A stretch of DNA of 64,000 nucleotides, taken from NCBI RefSeq assembly GCF_050320075.1, contig NZ_CP190018.1; one strand, 5' to 3'. Origin of the DNA: Escherichia coli (GTDB lineage: Bacteria; Pseudomonadota; Gammaproteobacteria; Enterobacterales; Enterobacteriaceae). The position numbers were made by a program, and so were the translations under genes. The notes under the pieces were generated by a model. It ran no database searches, had not been told where the DNA came from, and worked only from the letters and a program-made list of their open reading frames with translations. The first letter of the stretch is position 1, and every line of letters begins with the position of its first letter. Of this stretch, positions 6,789 to 15,050 are shown one piece after another.

Positions 6789-7162
6789 GATTTTTGGCAC
6801 GAGAGTAGTTTAATTGAGCCTGTAACTGTATGATTTTAAAGATGTAGATTAATTGAGTTTTGAAATCGTATATCCAAACGTATAACTAAAATGATTTGCT
6901 GCAAAAATGTACAGCTTTAACCGTTATCATTTTCCGGCTATTCGCTATGAAGCTGGCTGGTGGATAAGCACGGATAACCTGACATCTACAGCCGCCTTAA
7001 AAGCTGAACCCGACAAGCATATCGGCATCATGCCCACCAGCGTGACGCATTTTTTTAATTGCGCGGGCGTAAAAATTTGACGGGGCGGACAGTTCCATAA
7101 GTAATGGATTGCAGGAATTTCGCCCCCCCTCCTGAATGCAATTTTTCGTATATATATACAAA

Positions 7163-7290
7163 ACCACCCGTCCCACCTGTCCCGCCTGTCCCACTGGCAC
7201 CTAACAAATTGATTTTGTTAGAAATAAATTAGGTAAGGTAGGACAAGTCCAGGCTGTTTTGGGACAAGTTGGGGGGGAGGTGGGACAAGT
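7163..7290. repeat. Iteron block 1: three GTCCC units at ~10-bp spacing, 8-bp palindrome CTAACAAA-N5-TTTGTTAG, three GGGACAAGT units at ~21-bp spacing
   Basis: Read directly: TCCCACCTGTCCCGCCTGTCCCA at 7169-7194; palindrome at 7201-7221; G(G)GACAAGT at 7241, 7261, 7282. Confidence 0.6.
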
Positions 7291-7824
7291 CGAGCGAGTG
7301 AATCAAGCCGTGTTAGCGCGGTAAAGCGACAGTGCCGCCGCAATTTTGCGTTGTCGGGAGGCCACCGTAACAGCCACCATACGCGCACAATCTTCGGTGG
7401 TAACGCAATCCAGACGTGCGCAACATCCCCAGATAGGAAATCATTACCTAGCACAGCTAATTGCGCCAGAATCGATTACAGCGCGTTTCTGTGGCATTCA
7501 AGAACGGCTATCACTAGTGTATTGATATGTAATCCGCATATGAGTTTAAGCAACAAAATGATCCCCTTTCGAAAAAGGCACTAACCGTTTTTTCCGAAAT
7601 GATCCGTTGGTGATTTTGTAACTTATTGTTTTGTAGATGTAATTTTAAACTTGATAGGGTTATAAATAGGGGGCGTTTTTGTCAAGAATTGCAAATAATG
7701 CTCGTTTATTGTTCTTTGTTTGTTTGTTTTCTGTTCGTTGATGGGGGATCATTTTGCACTTTTTGGGGGATCATTTCGGAGGGGGGGGGCTGGCAACACG
7801 CCAGCACCCTCGATGCGTTTGTTT

Positions 7825-8034
7825 TTAGCAGTACTCCCAGTCTGTGGCTAGTAGGCTCTCAGGAGATAGCGTAACGCTATCCTCTGTGACGGGATTCAAC
7901 GCAATCAAATCGTTTCCGCGCCGTTCGAGAAAGACGATGTACGGAAGATGCCAGGCACTGCGGCGAGCTGGCACGCGTCGGCCTGGCTGCAACTTGTCGA
8001 GAATATCCACCAGCGAAACGTTCATGTGATTCAA
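7825..8034 (-). CDS. Hypothetical small protein (69 aa with TTG start; 66 aa from internal ATG)
   Basis: ORF with AGGAG about 5 nt upstream of the TTG; last gene of the ssb-finO-perC cluster; no recognisable family. Confidence 0.35.
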   Translation of the reverse strand: MNHMNVSLVDILDKLQPGRRVPARRSAWHLPYIVFLERRGNDLIALNPVTEDSVTLSPESLLATDWEYC

Positions 8035-8090: not shown

Positions 8091-8375
8091 CTATAAAACC
8101 TTGTCTGTCTGGTAGTTCCGCCAGACAGATTTTGCGATTTCTATCCCCATATCCGCCTGTGTGCGGTGTGCTGCCTCTCTCAAGCTCCCGAAATTATCCA
8201 GCATGACGGGCGAACGTGCTGCCTTGTGGATACATTTCGCGCGACGCTTTACTGCCTGTTCGCGCTCCTTATCGGTGTTCACCTGTTGCATGACCTCAGC
8301 CCATCGGGCCGCCGCTCTCCGGTACAGGCCTTTAGCCTCCAGATCTTCCGCTTTGCTGTCGTGAATCATACTCAT
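8091..8375 (-). CDS. PerC-family transcriptional activator-like protein (94 aa)
   Basis: Motif EDLEAKGLYRRAAARWAEV resembles the PerC family signature; start ATG overlaps stop of upstream gene (ATGA coupling). Confidence 0.5.
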   Translation of the reverse strand: MSMIHDSKAEDLEAKGLYRRAAARWAEVMQQVNTDKEREQAVKRRAKCIHKAARSPVMLDNFGSLREAAHRTQADMGIEIAKSVWRNYQTDKVL

Positions 8376-8908
8376 ACGCCAGCTTGCTCCTTGTTCGACT
8401 TACGTTTGCGCTTCTCTTTCAGTGCCATCAGTCGTGCTTCCGCGTCCTGCTGTTCCTGTTGTGTCACCTCGCCGCATGGCTGGCTATTCAGATCGTAACG
8501 CACGCCACCAGCCATTAAGGCACGGTAATAACGCGGAGAATGAGCATAAGATGCTAGCGCCGCACGTAATGCCCCTGACCCAAAAGCCAGCGCCCTGACG
8601 GCAATATCCTGTATCAGGTCTTCAAATATTCCTACCTTAAGCGGCTTCGGTGATTCCAGGCTGAATAATTCAGGCCATAGTTCAATAAGACGGTTAACGC
8701 GCCTGCGGTTTTTGCCCTGGCGTTTGGTCATATGCCGCCACGGTGTCGCCCCTGTGGGCTTCTGTTTGCGGCTCTGCTGTGCGTTCTGATTGCCGGGTAT
8801 CACTTTATGCGCTGATGTGGTTTTATCCTGCTGCTGTGTCGTCTGTGTCTTTTTCTGTGGTATGCCGTAAATGCCTTTCGGTTTTCTGCTAATAGTCAGT
8901 GTAGTCAT
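8372..8908 (-). CDS. ProQ/FinO-domain RNA-binding protein (178 aa) with basic low-complexity N-terminal extension
   Basis: C-terminal two thirds align by eye with E. coli ProQ N-terminal domain (PLKVGIFEDL..., LRAAL.SY..S.RY...GG.RYDL...PCGE). Confidence 0.6.
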   Translation of the reverse strand: MTTLTISRKPKGIYGIPQKKTQTTQQQDKTTSAHKVIPGNQNAQQSRKQKPTGATPWRHMTKRQGKNRRRVNRLIELWPELFSLESPKPLKVGIFEDLIQDIAVRALAFGSGALRAALASYAHSPRYYRALMAGGVRYDLNSQPCGEVTQQEQQDAEARLMALKEKRKRKSNKEQAGV

Positions 8909-8943: not shown

Positions 8944-9369
8944 TTAAAATGGTATTTCGTCCTCATACGGGTCATCCTGCTGGCCCGTCTGCTGCTTTGT
9001 TCTGTTCAGTGCGTCAGTAGCCTGCCCTTGCTGTCCTTTCCTGCCTCCTGGTCGCACGGTTCGCGCACTGATTACGCTGCCTGCGATGACCTGCCAGCCC
9101 TGCCGCATTTCCCCGTTCTGGTCTGTCCACTGGCTTATCTGCATGTTACCCGCCACGCTCACCAGTTCGCCTTTCTGGTGTTTTGCCAGTGCATCGGCCT
9201 GTCTGCCAAACGCCAGGACGGATAACCACATCGTCGCTGTTCCGTCATATGCCTGACTGCACGGAAGGGGAACAGCCATACTCACCAGCGCCATTGGTGT
9301 TCCCTTGCTGGTGGTTTTTAACTGCGGGTCAGCCACCAACCGCCCGTAAGCTGATATTTGTGCCGTCAT
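8944..9369 (-). CDS. ssb: Single-stranded DNA-binding protein (SSB-like, 141 aa)
   Basis: OB-fold pattern similar to E. coli SSB (W..V.AFG, WTDQNG) and acidic C-terminal tail EDEIPF (cf. DDDIPF). Confidence 0.6.
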   Translation of the reverse strand: MTAQISAYGRLVADPQLKTTSKGTPMALVSMAVPLPCSQAYDGTATMWLSVLAFGRQADALAKHQKGELVSVAGNMQISQWTDQNGEMRQGWQVIAGSVISARTVRPGGRKGQQGQATDALNRTKQQTGQQDDPYEDEIPF

Positions 9370-9444
9370 ATTGTCTGCTCTCCGGTTTTAAATGTTGGTT
9401 GGATTTTTAATGTCCACCAGCCAGGCAAAAAATAACGCCTGCTG

Positions 9445-9580
9445 ACTTGTCCCAAAATGCTCCTAACTTGTCCCAAAATCACCTTAACTTGTCCCGCTCT
9501 TGTCCCACTTTTTCTGATATTACCCAATATAATTCAGTATGTTATGTGTGTTTCTCACAGGTTGGGACAGGTGGGACAAG
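9445..9580. repeat. Iteron block 2: four ACTTGTCCC units (~21-bp spacing) plus GGGACAGGTGGGACAAG; inverted copy of block 1
   Basis: ACTTGTCCC at 9445, 9466, 9487; TTGTCCC at 9500; GGGACAGGTGGGA at 9564-9576 is the exact reverse complement of TCCCACCTGTCCC in block 1. Confidence 0.6.
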
Positions 9581-9605: not shown

Positions 9606-11741
9606 TTAACCACCTTCATCATCATGATCCTGTGCAAGTAAAAGGCCGTACACCCTTAGTCGTGCCCCCTTCATGTGCTTAAGACGTGGTGTTCTGATTT
9701 GCCATCCTTCCCCGCTGGCTGGCTTTTTCAGCATTCCGGCTTCGTGAAGGGCTCTTGCTACGGCATCCTTGTTAAATCCCTTCGCCACATGCGATTTAAA
9801 TGGCTCCGGCAGGACGTAAAACAAAACAGGCTCACCGTAACGCCCCTCGCTTTCCCTGTAGCCGTACAGTTCTGAAATCGGCAGGCTTGCAGGGTCATAA
9901 TTGACAGGCGCAAACCTGCTCATGCCGTAGGCAGTAAGAAATGCCTCTGCCTGTTCAATAATCTGCCTGTGTTCCTTGTTACCCGTGCCGAACTCCTTCA
10001 CCCAGGCATTAAAGTTATGCTGAATGGCATCACAGCACGTCTGAACATTCCAGCCCGTAACATGACCGGACAGCACAAGCGCGGCCTCCAGTATGGCGAA
10101 TCGTTCCCCTACGCGATGAACCTGTTCGCCGTAGCTCTCCGGTATTAGGTTGCGCCACCGTTCACGGCACGCCCTTACCGTGTCCTTAGCCTCCTGCTGG
10201 TGGGCTGCCAGCCATTTAACCCATTCACGACCCGCCGCCCCGTGGTTTTCTGTCCAGGCGGCTTTTAACGCGTCTGCGTGCGCCTTTCCTGTGCTGTATT
10301 CGTGAAACTGCGTAGACTTCTCCATCGGCACGTTAAGCAACCTGACAAGCTGCCCCGCCTTGACTTTTATCCCCTCACTTTTGAGGAATGTTTCAACATC
10401 CATTTCTCCGGTACTGATCGCCACCGTGCGCCAGTGTTTTATCTCCCGGTTGCCGCCGTCCTTCGCCCCCTGTAATTTCCCGGAACCGTTAAACAGCGTA
10501 TAGGCTGACGTGGACACCTCCCGCGCGTTTCCGGCCTGGCCTATTTCATCCAGGGGTAACAGCCCGTCGTTGTGCGCCTCTGCCTCGTTAGCGATACCTA
10601 ACGCTGTGCCGTACCAGGTCAGCCGTTGCGCGTCCGGCTCTCCCCATAAACTTGATGCGATGTTCTGTGTGGTGGTTTTCCCTGCCGATGATTGTTCGAA
10701 AAGATGTACCCCGAAGCCGTCAGCGCCCACCAGCCCGATTAATGGTGCTGATAACGATACCGCCACACCCAGCATCATGGACGGATTACCACCAGCCAGT
10801 CGCGCCACTGTATCGCGCCAGCCCTCTGTCGTTCCTGCTACGGAATAACCATTAACGGCAGCCGTTTTTCCGGTAAACAGGATCGGTTTTTCAGACTCAC
10901 CAATGACTGAACCGTCCGGCATGATGTACGCGCCAAAATGCCACCCCGTTGTTGTGCTTAACTGCCATTCCTCATGGTTTCCGTTTAACTGCATCCAGTC
11001 AGCCAGGATAGCCCTGTATTTGCCGTTGGTTGTCACATTGAGTCCGTGGTCTTTCAGCAGCCGCCAGCCGTCACGGTCGCCAATGCCACCGCACGGGATC
11101 GCCATTGTGATGACTTCATGATTTGCTAATTTTTTCCAGCGCATCACGCGGTAATGCTCTTTACCGATCGTTCCCGTTCCCAGTAGTTCAAGCGGGGAAC
11201 ATAACCACGCCTCAGGCCGGATAATTTCGCCTGACTGTTTGTCAACTTTGGGCGTTACCCAGAAAACACCATCGGCGCGACTTTCAACGCGGGGTTTTAA
11301 TTCATCATCGCCCTGGCTTTCTGTGATTTTTTTCTTTAAGGGCAACACCAGACTTTCCCCGCGCTCGTATTCGTCTTTGAGGCGAGGCAACTGGTCGGAT
11401 AAATCCGCCGGGCTGGTGTCAGTTATCCCCGCATATTCGTATACGGTCTTCACGCCAGCCACAGCCAGCAATGTGACGATCTGTGTAAGGCTACGTTCAG
11501 TGATGTGCCCTGCGCGGTAAACACGCACACACTGACGGCTATCATCAATAATCTGATAACCGGTAATATCTTTCAGGTGTTCATCTGACAGAACGACAGG
11601 CGGCACATTGTCGGCGGCAATATGCTTACCTGCCCATTCCTGCCACTCTTTCGCATGGCTCCACGCATCACTACCCGCAAAAATGATAACCTCCGTCATT
11701 TTGTCGGCTGGCTGGTGCTTTAAGTTCGGTGCGCGTTTCAT
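9606..11741 (-). CDS. Replicative primase-helicase (TOPRIM-like N-terminus plus P-loop NTPase, 711 aa)
   Basis: Walker A-like SSAGKTT, large size, position downstream of int/alpA as in P4 alpha-type and PICI pri-rep genes; start overlaps upstream small ORF. Confidence 0.75.
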   Translation of the reverse strand: MKRAPNLKHQPADKMTEVIIFAGSDAWSHAKEWQEWAGKHIAADNVPPVVLSDEHLKDITGYQIIDDSRQCVRVYRAGHITERSLTQIVTLLAVAGVKTVYEYAGITDTSPADLSDQLPRLKDEYERGESLVLPLKKKITESQGDDELKPRVESRADGVFWVTPKVDKQSGEIIRPEAWLCSPLELLGTGTIGKEHYRVMRWKKLANHEVITMAIPCGGIGDRDGWRLLKDHGLNVTTNGKYRAILADWMQLNGNHEEWQLSTTTGWHFGAYIMPDGSVIGESEKPILFTGKTAAVNGYSVAGTTEGWRDTVARLAGGNPSMMLGVAVSLSAPLIGLVGADGFGVHLFEQSSAGKTTTQNIASSLWGEPDAQRLTWYGTALGIANEAEAHNDGLLPLDEIGQAGNAREVSTSAYTLFNGSGKLQGAKDGGNREIKHWRTVAISTGEMDVETFLKSEGIKVKAGQLVRLLNVPMEKSTQFHEYSTGKAHADALKAAWTENHGAAGREWVKWLAAHQQEAKDTVRACRERWRNLIPESYGEQVHRVGERFAILEAALVLSGHVTGWNVQTCCDAIQHNFNAWVKEFGTGNKEHRQIIEQAEAFLTAYGMSRFAPVNYDPASLPISELYGYRESEGRYGEPVLFYVLPEPFKSHVAKGFNKDAVARALHEAGMLKKPASGEGWQIRTPRLKHMKGARLRVYGLLLAQDHDDEGG

Positions 11742-12064: not shown

Positions 12065-12250
12065 TTAATGAACTGTCGCCACTTCAATTACGGCACGGAT
12101 CATCACCTGCGTGAACCCACAGCCGATTAACTCTTCTTTCAATATTGCGATAGCTGCATTAACGCTGGTGGCGTTCACGTTTTGCTGATTATCAATAACG
12201 TGGCCTTGATGATTTACAGCGCGTGCGGTTATCTGAAATCGCTTAAGCAT
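12065..12250 (-). CDS. Hypothetical small protein (61 aa)
   Basis: ORF preceded by GGGGTGAGG SD-like sequence; start overlaps stop of upstream small ORF. Confidence 0.4.
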   Translation of the reverse strand: MLKRFQITARAVNHQGHVIDNQQNVNATSVNAAIAILKEELIGCGFTQVMIRAVIEVATVH

Positions 12251-12431
12251 GCCTCACCCCCTGACGAATACGGGCAGCGAATACAGCAACACAGCCGGAC
12301 GGGCAACAGTTACGCGCTTCTCGTTCGGTTGATGCCTCGACGTGAACAATACGGGAATCAGTCGGATTAAAGATGACAAAGCGCCAGATAAATGTGTTTT
12401 GAGAATGTTCGAGGGTAGGGGTAGTAGCCAT
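12243..12431 (-). CDS. Small protein (62 aa), possibly Icd-like (host cell division inhibitor-like) as annotated in P4-like elements
   Basis: Strong SD AGGAGG 7 nt upstream of ATG; FIWRF and FAAR motifs recalled from Icd-like annotations (memory-based, uncertain). Confidence 0.45.
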   Translation of the reverse strand: MATTPTLEHSQNTFIWRFVIFNPTDSRIVHVEASTEREARNCCPSGCVAVFAARIRQGVRHA

Positions 12432-12640
12432 TTGGCAGCCTCCTGTAACGTTGGGATATACCCACCGCCGGAGGTGGTAAGCTCGATGGCGGTGGACTGT
12501 ACAGGGTTACCACAACTGGTGTTACAGGAAACCAGCCTGACCGAAGTCAGCCCCATACAGCCCACCATTGATAAGGCGTGCGCGTGCGCCGATACAAAAA
12601 AAGACGCCTGGCGCGTCTGTATCGCCTGTAACTCCAGCGG
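12432..12640 (-). ncRNA. Candidate structured regulatory RNA / leader (P4 immunity-like seqA-seqB-seqC arrangement)
   Basis: On the minus strand: GTTACAGG (12632-12625), intrinsic terminator, UUCG-tetraloop hairpin (12550-12537), complementary CCTGTAAC (12528-12521), then GTTACAGGAGG (12449-12439) overlapping the SD of the first ORF. Confidence 0.3.
12595..12618 (-). terminator. Intrinsic terminator inside the leader region (AGACGC-loop-GCGTCT followed by T7 on minus strand)
   Basis: 6-bp GC-rich stem, 5-nt loop, run of seven T on the transcribed strand. Confidence 0.5.
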
Positions 12641-13077
12641 GGTGGTAATCCCGACACCCGTTTTATGAGGTGCGCAGGGAGTATATCCCGTTTTCTTGCT
12701 CATGTGGTCGGATGTGTTGAAGGTGTGCCCACCACACAAATCACATTGCTCACCAGCCGGAAATATGGCATTGTTGGCGATGCATTCAAGTTTAATATAT
12801 GCCTTCTGGCGACCCTCTGCGGTCGCCTTTGTTTTATTCGTAAGCAACATATTTCTTTTGTCGTTTAAGCTATGCGATTGTACGTTTCCGTTTAAAACGG
12901 AAGTGCTATTAGTTCAATTAATTCGTTCGTACGGTTTGAACTGAATAATAACATCAGCCATAATTTTTTATGGTTGAACGAAAACCTGCCCCTGTTTGGG
13001 CATTTTTGCCAGTATTCATAATGTTCTCTCTTAATTGTTTTGTTGCTTGATAGTAATCAGGCCAGCGTTAATCACAC

Positions 13078-13269
13078 TTATGCTTCACGAGTTTCTCTCT
13101 CACGTTCTTTCAACCAGGCGAGTACCTCATCTTCATACCAGCCAATGCGACGCAGCCCGATACGGAATCCTTTGGGGAACCCGCCTTTGTTAACCATCTC
13201 CGTTAGGGTCGAATCAGATTTAATGCGTAGCAAGGCCTTTACCTCTGGTCGTAAAAGAATAGCCCTCAT
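13078..13269 (-). CDS. alpA: AlpA-family phage transcriptional regulator / excisionase-like (63 aa)
   Basis: Small HTH protein with LLR..EV......S.ST......G.FP....IG.R.IGW...EV..WL pattern; position between integrase and replication genes. Confidence 0.7.
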   Translation of the reverse strand: MRAILLRPEVKALLRIKSDSTLTEMVNKGGFPKGFRIGLRRIGWYEDEVLAWLKERERETREA

Positions 13270-13522: not shown

Positions 13523-14767
13523 TTATTTTATTCCGCGTAATCCTCTGTGCCCGCTGGCGATGGTTGTTCCGGTTGCGGCTGCTTCCACAAAATCACCCCA
13601 CCAGCACATTAACACTTTACGTTTTTCCAGGTAGTTGCTTCGGTTGTATGCCCGTCTAACTTCGTTTGTGTCCACGTGGGCTAGTGCGGCTTCGATCACG
13701 TCAGGTTCAAATCCTTCTTCATTCGCCGCCGTGCTGAATATTGCGCGTAGTCCGTGAGATACCAGCACACCAGCGTAACCCATTCGTCGTAATGCTGCGT
13801 TTGCTGTCTGGCTGCTCATTGATTGCACTGGATTTTTAAGACTTGGGAAAACATGCTCCCTTCGTGCGCTAATCGGCTTCATGGCTTCAAGCACTGCCAT
13901 CGCCTGAGCGCAAAGGGGGATCACATGATCACGGCGCATCTTCATGCGTCCGGCTGGTATCGTCCAGGTTGCCGCCTCAAGGTTGATTTCTTCCCACCGT
14001 GCGGCGGAGGCTTCGGCTGGGCGGGTTGCGGTTAACAACTGCCACTCAATCAGCAATCTGGTTTGCCGTTCTATGCTGGCGATCGATAAATCGTGCATTA
14101 GCTGCGGTAGTTGTTCCGGTCGGATGGTTGGCATGTGCTTTTTGGTGGGGGAAGGGAATGCCTTGCGAACGTTCGCGGCGGTGTTGATGTCAATCAGTCC
14201 ACTGTTGGCAGCAAAATCCATCACTTCATTGATGCGCTGTAAAACGCGTTTCAGTGTTTCCAGGTTGCCACGTGCCTTGATGGGCGTGAGTATCTCAACA
14301 AAGCGGCGAGCGGTGAGAGTATCTATCGGTGTGTTTCCGATATACGGGAATACATATTTCTCTAGCGAGCGCCAGATGTCCTTGATCGTATTGTGGGCGA
14401 GATTCTGGTTTTTTTTCATTTCGTACCACAATGCGGCCACATTTTCGAACGTGTTGCCCTGTCGTCGAGCCTCTGCTTCGAGTTTTTGCCGTTCGTATTC
14501 CTGCGGGTCGGTTCCTGCCGCAATTAACGTCCTGTACTCGCTACGGCGTTTTCTGGCATCAGCCAGGGAGACTTCATCAAGCGAGCCCAAACTAATGATT
14601 GTTCGTTTTTTGTTCGATGGTCGATAGTAGTTGAATCGCCATAGTTTCGAACCAGACGGCTTAATAACGAGAAAAAGCCCGCCGCCATCCTGTAAGGTGT
14701 ATTCTTTTTCCGCTGGTTTAGCTGCTTTGATCTGTGTGGTGGTGAGTGGGGTCGCCTTTCTTGCCAT
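13523..14767 (-). CDS. int: Tyrosine site-specific integrase, P4-type (414 aa)
   Basis: N-terminal arm-binding-like domain (LTTTQIKAAKP...GGGLFLVIKPSGSKLWRF), C-terminal catalytic region with HGLRA and terminal tyrosine region; adjacent to tRNA gene. Confidence 0.85.
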   Translation of the reverse strand: MARKATPLTTTQIKAAKPAEKEYTLQDGGGLFLVIKPSGSKLWRFNYYRPSNKKRTIISLGSLDEVSLADARKRRSEYRTLIAAGTDPQEYERQKLEAEARRQGNTFENVAALWYEMKKNQNLAHNTIKDIWRSLEKYVFPYIGNTPIDTLTARRFVEILTPIKARGNLETLKRVLQRINEVMDFAANSGLIDINTAANVRKAFPSPTKKHMPTIRPEQLPQLMHDLSIASIERQTRLLIEWQLLTATRPAEASAARWEEINLEAATWTIPAGRMKMRRDHVIPLCAQAMAVLEAMKPISARREHVFPSLKNPVQSMSSQTANAALRRMGYAGVLVSHGLRAIFSTAANEEGFEPDVIEAALAHVDTNEVRRAYNRSNYLEKRKVLMCWWGDFVEAAATGTTIASGHRGLRGIK

Positions 14768-14973: not shown

Positions 14974-15050
14974 TGGTCGGCACGAGAGGATTTGAACCTC
15001 CGACCCCCGACACCCCATGACGGTGCGCTACCAGGCTGCGCTACGTGCCG
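14974..15050 (-). tRNA. proL: tRNA-Pro (anticodon GGG), 77 nt with encoded CCA
   Basis: Reverse complement reads CGGCACGTAGCGCAGCCTGGTAGCGCACCGTCATGGGGTGTCGGGGGTCGGAGGTTCAAATCCTCTCGTGCCGACCA; cloverleaf with GGG in anticodon loop. Confidence 0.9.

Follow-up and report, generated by a model that had tools for sequence, protein, structure and literature searches.

A FinO-domain protein gene paired with a PerC-family regulator gene in a phage satellite of Escherichia coli

Among bacterial RNA chaperones, the FinO-domain proteins make up the third major class. Few members from mobile elements have been studied, and these, FinO and FopA, each control a key step in the life of the element that carries them, through one antisense RNA. 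Here we describe a FinO-domain gene that belongs to a phage satellite, a phage-inducible chromosomal island (PICI) of Escherichia coli. The gene lies in a stretch of 64,000 nucleotides (RefSeq assembly GCF_050320075.1, contig NZ_CP190018.1), which is called the window below; all coordinates given without a locus label are window positions. Every characterized member of the FinO family binds RNA, and a review of the family notes plasmid- and phage-borne members, not satellites (PMC9977716). FopA assists the antisense RNA Inc in replication control (PMC9977716). As for the satellites, the features of a Gram-negative PICI are an integrase, AlpA, a primase with an origin, and PerC alleles (PMC6092414, PMC11773190). 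Induction by a helper phage, excision, and packaging have been shown experimentally only for a relative of the present island, EcCIMP1, and a PICI-encoded PerC homologue, EcCIMP1_025, acts on expression of host LEE1 (PMC11773190). PerC is discussed in these PICI papers, and neither their text nor the supplements searched mention ProQ or FinO (PMC6092414, PMC11773190).

The gene pair at the center of this work is laid out as follows. Gene calls of the RefSeq Prokaryotic Genome Annotation Pipeline (PGAP) were taken from the identical stretch of E. coli YZLc1-3.

8372..8908, minus strand: gene for the FinO-domain protein, 178 amino acids (open reading frame (ORF) listing; Pfam PF04352; identical to RefSeq WP_000209995.1)
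8396..8704, minus strand: FinO/ProQ domain proper, residues 69-171 (Pfam match, AlphaFold2, Foldseek)
8705..8908, minus strand: basic N-terminal tail rich in K, Q, and T, predicted to be disordered, residues 1-68 (composition; predicted local distance difference test, pLDDT)
8372..8375, minus strand: ATGA overlap of the stop of the FinO-domain gene and the start of the PerC gene (sequence; relatives)
8091..8375, minus strand: PerC-family regulator gene, 94 amino acids, or 92 from the second ATG at 8369 (Pfam, phrog_994, PGAP)

An earlier note on this DNA had read the 178-residue ORF as a relative of ProQ and FinO from the motifs PLKVGIFEDL, LRAALASY, and RYDLNSQPCGE, all of which are indeed present. 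Profile and structure searches bear the assignment out. The PF04352 profile matches residues 69-171 over model positions 6-107 of 109, nearly its full length, with an E-value of 1.7e-24. It is the only Pfam domain in the protein, whose C-terminal end lies 7 residues past the match. The NCBIfam models for FinO (NF010317, E 1.7e-18) and for the ProQ equivalog (NF003434, E 2.7e-17) also match, with scores well below their cut-offs (67.1 bits vs 136 and 63.4 bits vs 127, respectively). A sequence search of Protein Data Bank (PDB) chains finds ProQ, FinO, NMB1681, and RocC at E-values from 1e-13 to 2e-6. An alignment of 21 homologues served as the basis of the AlphaFold2 model, of residue conservation, and of a family profile, and this profile finds ProQ, FinO, RocC, Lpp1663, and NMB1681 at E-values from 2e-20 to 1e-11. 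The model has a pLDDT of 85-95 over residues 61-170 and below 50 for residues 11-54. It places helices at residues 62-77, 94-105, 111-122, 125-133, and 150-176 and strands at 136-138 and 144-147, and each of its 26 best Foldseek matches in the PDB is a FinO-domain structure, with FinO, RocC, and NMB1681 among them. The product of 8372..8908 is thus almost certainly a FinO-domain protein.

The N-terminal tail was described beforehand as rich in lysine and glutamine, which agrees with its composition: residues 1-68 include 15 K+R, 1 D+E, 10 Q, and 11 T, and the isoelectric point is 11.9. Across the family, the tail positions that are kept are the first 10 residues (MTxLTINRKP) and a KNRRR stretch. 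The ratio of nonsynonymous to synonymous substitution rates (dN/dS), computed against 49 distinct homologues, is ~0.22 in the tail and the domain alike. The gene is under purifying selection.

The best Foldseek match is to FinO from F-like plasmids (PDB 1dvo; E 1.6e-6, root-mean-square deviation 2.4 Å). The two proteins share domain and fold, with ~33% identity over ~100 residues, and both are products of mobile-element genes with a basic N-terminal extension and no Tudor-like C-terminal domain. The satellite gene differs from finO in its setting: it has no tra operon and no FinP or traJ nearby, and it is chromosomal, follows a primase gene and origin, and is coupled to PerC. Of the solved structures, the N-terminal domain of E. 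coli ProQ (PDB 5nb9) comes closest in sequence (E 1.1e-13). With ProQ residue numbers placed as we take them to fall on the alignment, the equivalents of R58, R69, Y70, R80, K35, G37, and D41 are kept, and those of R100 and K101 are not. Unlike the satellite protein, ProQ continues into a linker and a C-terminal Tudor-like domain, and its gene is a core gene rather than an island gene. RocC of Legionella and NMB1681, the minimal ProQ of Neisseria, have the same fold (target-normalized template modeling score up to 0.82 for RocC), but they are chromosomal regulators with known small RNA (sRNA) partners. FopA of the Salmonella plasmid pCol1B9 resembles the satellite protein in being a mobile-element FinO-domain protein with a long N-terminal extension (PMC9977716); it differs in its plasmid context, the identity is 34% over 83 residues (E 1e-7), and no Inc-like RNA was found in the present locus.

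How the satellite protein might contact RNA can be read from the crystal structure of RocC with its RNA, RocR. In that complex Y87, R97, and the turn glycine G52 form a pocket for the 3' nucleotide, and the helix N-cap residues S70 and K71, with R75, hold the hairpin phosphates (PMC9674577). In the alignment, RocC G52, R75, Y87, and R97 are identical to G93, R115, Y127, and R137 of the satellite protein; across the 21 homologues Y127 and R137 are invariant, and G93 and R115 nearly so. RocC S70 and K71 are not kept. The N-cap serine is replaced by G110 and the lysine by S111, a variable position where relatives have P, T, A, Q, or R. The family motif of this region is G-x-G-x-L-R, and the modeled helix starts at residue 111. 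FinO, for its part, has Ser-His-Lys-Lys where the satellite protein has Gly-Ser-Gly-Ala. Because Y127, R137, and G93 are kept while Ser-Lys is replaced, the 3'-end pocket is intact and the hairpin-binding N-cap altered. The protein probably binds RNA in the FinO manner.

The second member of the pair matches PF06069 (Pfam, E 3.2e-32) and phrog_994 (E 4e-36). As the earlier note had it, the FinO-domain gene ends within the start of the PerC-like ORF: TCAT on the plus strand at 8372-8375 is ATGA on the coding strand. In relatives, the ATGA overlap is exactly where the PerC protein begins, with MIHD. A 6-nucleotide insertion (ATGAGTATGATT) in the window makes the second ATG, at 8369, the counterpart of that start. 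PGAP uses this ATG, which leaves 2 nucleotides between the FinO stop and the PerC start. Both starts are compatible with translational coupling.

The arrangement recurs widely. A scan of IMG/VR viral contigs gave 80 loci with a FinO homologue, for which neighboring genes were called by tblastn; a primase gene lies upstream in 71/80, and PerC is found in 59/80. In the related loci, 77 of 80 adjacent FinO-PerC pairs keep the stop/start overlap, as ATGA and once as GTGA. A contig scan with the family alignment returned 2 loci only; its peptide patterns were too narrow. A second, independent pattern scan of viral contigs gave 75 elements, taken as an unbiased sample of the satellite family. The FinO-domain gene is present in 26 of these 75 elements, about two thirds being without it, and PerC accompanies it in 23 of the 26, compared with 10 of the 49 FinO-negative elements. 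Since 48 of the 75 have a primase without FinO, and 23 of 26 FinO-positive elements carry PerC, FinO-PerC is a conserved, optional accessory cassette, independent of any one leader, origin, or integrase type. What is new here is this cassette, which follows the origin in about a third of the satellite family.

In E. coli, an 818-nucleotide query covering both genes was run against 5426 complete genomes. It matches in 1596 of them when partial matches, including PerC-only ones, are counted, and at least 80% of the query is covered in 236. Up to 10 places per genome are matched, and 1 of 2324 places is plasmid-borne, nearly all being chromosomal. Relatives with ~80% nucleotide identity are PICI-type elements at tRNA-Thr/proA with the same order, i.e., primase, a single-stranded DNA-binding protein (SSB) where present, FinO, and PerC; two of them, L002 and L005, occupy the proA/tRNA-Thr site used by EcCIMP1. 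More distant FinO paralogues (60-79% nucleotide identity; L003, L004, and L007) stand alone in large E. coli pathogenicity islands, where they adjoin YagK/YfjJ ('inovirus Gp2') genes without PerC or primase; some are frameshifted. An identical FinO protein is encoded by Escherichia albertii NBRC 107761 (L008), and the whole island is 96-100% identical there, which argues for recent horizontal transfer. A phage collection yielded only 9 records with distant relatives, at no more than 42% identity, and none of these is a P4 record.

The novelty of the genes as such is smaller than the earlier note implied. RefSeq lists WP_000209995.1 as 'ProQ/FINO family protein' and its neighbor as 'PerC family transcriptional regulator'. 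The genome paper of enteroaggregative E. coli (EAEC) 042 from 2010 describes ROD34, an 8169 bp region at tRNA-Pro in which Ec042-2429 is 'similar to proQ' and Ec042-2430 is 'PerC-like' (PMC2808357), and the ROD34 region carries the same protein accession, WP_000209995.1. The protein represents an uncharacterized, satellite-borne subfamily of a known protein family, already annotated, and not a new kind of system.

We favor, at roughly 45%, the view that the gene encodes an accessory RNA-binding protein of the FinO-domain type whose ligands are not specific to the island. The cassette is optional and occurs alongside many types of primase, iteron, leader, and integrase, so that its ligands most likely are not bound to one immunity or origin sequence. 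By analogy with FinO, FopA, RocC, and ProQ, the protein would clamp a terminator-type hairpin at its base, together with the 3' tail. The clamped RNA would be protected from decay and its pairing with a complementary RNA sped up, with the basic tail assisting. Candidate ligands are terminator-bearing RNAs of the helper phage, of the host, or of co-resident elements, or generic satellite transcripts. Together, FinO and PerC would make up a post-transcriptional plus transcriptional accessory module.

The remaining features of the island, from the gene next to FinO outward, are these.

8944..9369, minus strand: SSB gene, 35 nucleotides upstream of FinO (TIGR00621, 61 bits, cut-off 53.95; phrog_44)
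9438..9580, no strand: iteron cluster, putative replication origin, with three copies of ACTTGTCCCAAAAT and GGGACAGGTGGGACAAG (repeat families D2, D3, D9)
9606..11741, minus strand: primase/helicase gene, DUF927, P4 alpha-like (phrog_1139 'DNA primase', E 1.8e-165; PGAP)
12243..12431, minus strand: Icd-like gene, first ORF of the putative operon ending in FinO-PerC (PGAP; phrog_29966, E 2e-30)
12485..12572, minus strand: C4 antisense (immunity) RNA, operon leader (Rfam RF01695, 78.7 bits, gathering score 45, full length)
12597..12673, minus strand: isrK-type RNA with an intrinsic terminator (Rfam RF01394, 61.6 bits, gathering score 50; terminator scan)
13078..13269, minus strand: AlpA-type regulator/excisionase gene (Pfam PF05930, E 6.6e-6; phrog_66)
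13523..14767, minus strand: tyrosine integrase gene (phrog_1, E 7e-72; PGAP)
14974..15050, minus strand: tRNA-Pro(GGG), the integration site (ARAGORN)
6796..6813, no strand: distal attachment (att) repeat (GGCACGAGAG...), far end of the island (repeat family D15)

The 3' end of tRNA-Pro (14979-14996) recurs at 6796-6813 as repeat family D15, which sets the island length at ~8.2 kb. These limits agree with ROD34 of EAEC 042 (8169 bp), and in the RefSeq annotation the island is placed between yejO and tRNA-Pro. On the minus strand the order is integrase, AlpA, isrK RNA, C4 RNA, Icd-like, a 61-residue ORF, DUF4222, primase/helicase, iterons, SSB, FinO, PerC, and a 69-residue ORF; the FinO-domain gene is oriented like the primase gene and comes just after the iteron origin. 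The annotated genes of the 8.2-kb island include no phage structural or lysis gene, and nothing resembling cargo or packaging genes follows PerC. The mobile island proposed from the sequence is thus borne out by integrase, tRNA-Pro site, direct repeats, and satellite gene content. Judged by its gene content, the island belongs to the Gram-negative PICIs; its replicon is of the P4 type and its integration site is tRNA-Pro. With the E. coli PICIs EcCICFT073, EcCIEDL933, and EcCIMP1 it shares the integrase, AlpA, an origin behind the primase gene, a PerC allele, and the lack of structural genes; it is shorter than these and has in addition a C4 RNA leader of the P1/P4 type. The island differs from P4 in that sid, delta, and psu are absent from its annotation, and the interval from PerC to the att repeat is too short to hold them; P4 itself has no FinO-domain gene. 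PADLOC gave no defense-system match for FinO, PerC, the 69-residue ORF, the Icd-like protein, or the 61-residue ORF. The 69-residue ORF (7825-8034, minus strand, TTG start, after PerC; phrog_7206, E 1.2e-6) is left unannotated by PGAP and is found only in this island type. An int-alpA RNA motif (Rfam RF02996) lies between integrase and alpA in the FinO-bearing loci L005, L006, and L055; in the window it was not detected, even at E-values up to 1.

That the island uses RNA-based regulation, as had been suggested, is supported by its leader. The isrK terminator has its stem at 12618-12602, followed by a T run. The C4 loop CCUGUAAC is exactly complementary to GUUACAGGA at 12449-12441 (minus strand), which overlaps the Shine-Dalgarno sequence of the Icd-like gene, and to GUUACAGG at 12632-12625 (minus strand), inside the isrK match. 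The P1 c4 and P4 CI RNA immunity systems have the same two-target layout: there, too, a C4-family RNA precedes an icd-like gene and its loop complements both an upstream site and a downstream ribosome-binding site. From gene spacing and the P1/P4 logic, FinO-PerC would be transcribed from the icd-primase operon, gated by C4 RNA at the icd-like ribosome-binding site. If so, the FinO-domain protein would be made only when a helper phage derepresses the satellite. In the relative L088 (845-1876) an isrK RNA is followed by three tandem C4 RNAs, all above the Rfam gathering scores. In the locus L060 (2988-4526) a 512-codon open frame, too long for chance, covers the entire leader, reaching from the antirepressor gene as far as the C-terminus of the Icd-like protein, with a YlcI/YnfO-like ORF overlapping it on the opposite strand.

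Several points weigh against the view favored above. In place of the N-cap Ser-Lys of RocC, ProQ, and FinO, the satellite protein has Gly-x (G110-S111), and hairpin recognition may differ for that reason. The sample of elements is lineage-structured, so the counts of FinO and PerC occurring together are not independent events: 17 of the 26 FinO-positive elements look like one lineage, which also dominates a comparison of gene families between FinO-positive and FinO-negative elements that was uninformative beyond PerC. The characterized FinO proteins of mobile elements, FinO and FopA, each have as target an antisense RNA of the element that encodes them, and by analogy the prior would favor a cis-encoded ligand. 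Finally, a promoter scan of the coding strand found no sigma-70-like promoter upstream of SSB or FinO; this neither confirms nor excludes the transcription unit, which is therefore drawn from spacing only.

The strongest competing proposal takes up an idea of the earlier note. The protein could be a dedicated chaperone of the island's immunity RNAs that binds isrK, C4, or both and exerts feedback on the C4-gated operon, either stabilizing these RNAs or speeding the pairing of C4 with both target sites. Several observations fit. C4 and isrK score above the Rfam gathering thresholds, the C4 loop has its two complements, and the FinO-domain gene would sit within the operon that C4 controls. The isrK RNA ends in a hairpin and U run, a structure type bound by FinO domains (PMC9674577), and IsrK is among the ProQ-associated sRNAs of Salmonella (PMC5391140), which makes isrK a reasonable ligand here, though not family-wide. 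The isrK terminator stem is short, however, at 6 bp, and the distribution of these RNAs speaks against a dedicated role. Of 10 FinO-bearing loci taken as representatives, Rfam detects C4/isrK in 2, and it detects them in none of the 3 annotated E. coli relatives; by BLAST, C4 is found in 6 of 89 loci. The C4/CI RNAs of P1 and P4 are not known to depend on a protein cofactor. An obligate partnership between the FinO-domain protein and C4/isrK was ruled out by the Rfam (13 relatives) and BLAST (89 loci) searches. The suggestion in the earlier note that the protein may stabilize the island's own regulatory RNA therefore draws no support from co-occurrence, as most FinO-PerC relatives have no detectable C4 or isrK. 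A chaperone dedicated to the immunity RNAs is possible but doubtful.

The leader holds one more conserved element, of 100 nucleotides, at 12729-12837. It is present in 48 FinO loci. Its plus strand has a terminator-like hairpin (12808-12837), GGCGACC/GGTCGCC, and a T tail; a compensatory variant, GGCCACC/GGTGGCC, also occurs, and TTTGTTTT comes after the hairpin. The minus strand keeps an open frame, which PGAP calls as a truncated 'Ash family protein' (N-terminus). Candidate readings of the element are a terminator, an antisense RNA, and a coding sequence. As a FinO-specific ligand it was rejected, since among the 75 loci with the element there are 48 that have a primase but lack FinO. The element is common to more than 100 satellite loci.

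A second proposal takes its cue from FopA. The protein would act in replication or copy-number control by aiding an antisense RNA near the origin or the primase gene. The location is suggestive: the FinO-domain gene always follows the iteron origin, with the last iterons ~30 nucleotides before its start in elements without SSB, its neighbors are the SSB and primase genes, and two iteron clusters flank the SSB-FinO-PerC block of the window. In almost all related loci, iterons separate the primase gene from the FinO gene, but they are of at least 10 types that change with the primase allele, and the FinO proteins that accompany these different iteron and primase types are 75-81% identical in amino acid sequence. 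Furthermore, no conserved pair of antisense promoter and terminator was seen near the origin, and 48 of the 75 family members have a primase but do without FinO. We regard this role as quite unlikely.

Two observations on the iterons themselves may be added. The second cluster in the window, at 7166-7294 downstream of PerC, consists of three copies of GTCCCA, an AT-rich spacer, and three copies of GGGACAAGT. It is inverted relative to 9438-9580, so that SSB-FinO-PerC and the 69-residue ORF lie between both in an arrangement reminiscent of P4 ori and crr, and it is found only in this island type (L001 and L008). Among the iteron types of FinO-bearing loci is TGTTCACC, which we take to be the P4 type I iteron. 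The iteron CTGTTCACC, located between primase and FinO in L048, L053, L065, and others, contains TGTTCACC, and this ties the satellite replicons to the P4 alpha family.

It is very improbable that the domain now serves a purpose other than RNA chaperoning, for example by binding single-stranded or structured DNA at the origin or by working mainly as a partner protein of PerC. The replacement of the N-cap Ser-Lys motif in the satellite FinO family and the physical ties of the gene to SSB, origin, and PerC would suit such a role. On the other side, the 3'-nucleotide pocket, which recognizes a ribose 3' end, is invariant (PMC9674577), and the characterized FinO-family members all bind RNA (PMC9977716). 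That the gene is a decaying, functionless remnant is hardly credible, for despite the small size of the island (8.2 kb), its lack of cargo or packaging genes after PerC, and the frameshifts in some paralogues of large pathogenicity islands, an undamaged ORF encodes the same protein in E. coli and E. albertii, the dN/dS is ~0.22, and the overlap with PerC is conserved.

The preferred reading, an accessory RNA-binding protein with ligands not specific to the island, has a bolder extension, which we hold to be unlikely as it stands. The satellite FinO proteins would form a distinct functional class, RNA chaperones made in fixed proportion with PerC that plug into foreign RNA networks. Their targets would be antisense or immunity RNAs of helper phages, ProQ-dependent sRNAs of the host, or FinP-like RNAs of co-resident plasmids. 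If this were true, a satellite would reprogram the gene expression of its helper or host during induction, and in the present island the chaperone might also reinforce the C4/isrK immunity switch. Apart from that extension, the FinO-domain gene recurs as an accessory of phage satellites in E. coli, locked to PerC and placed beside the replication origin. The identity of its ligands would show whether satellites manage their helpers, their hosts, or their own immunity at the post-transcriptional level.

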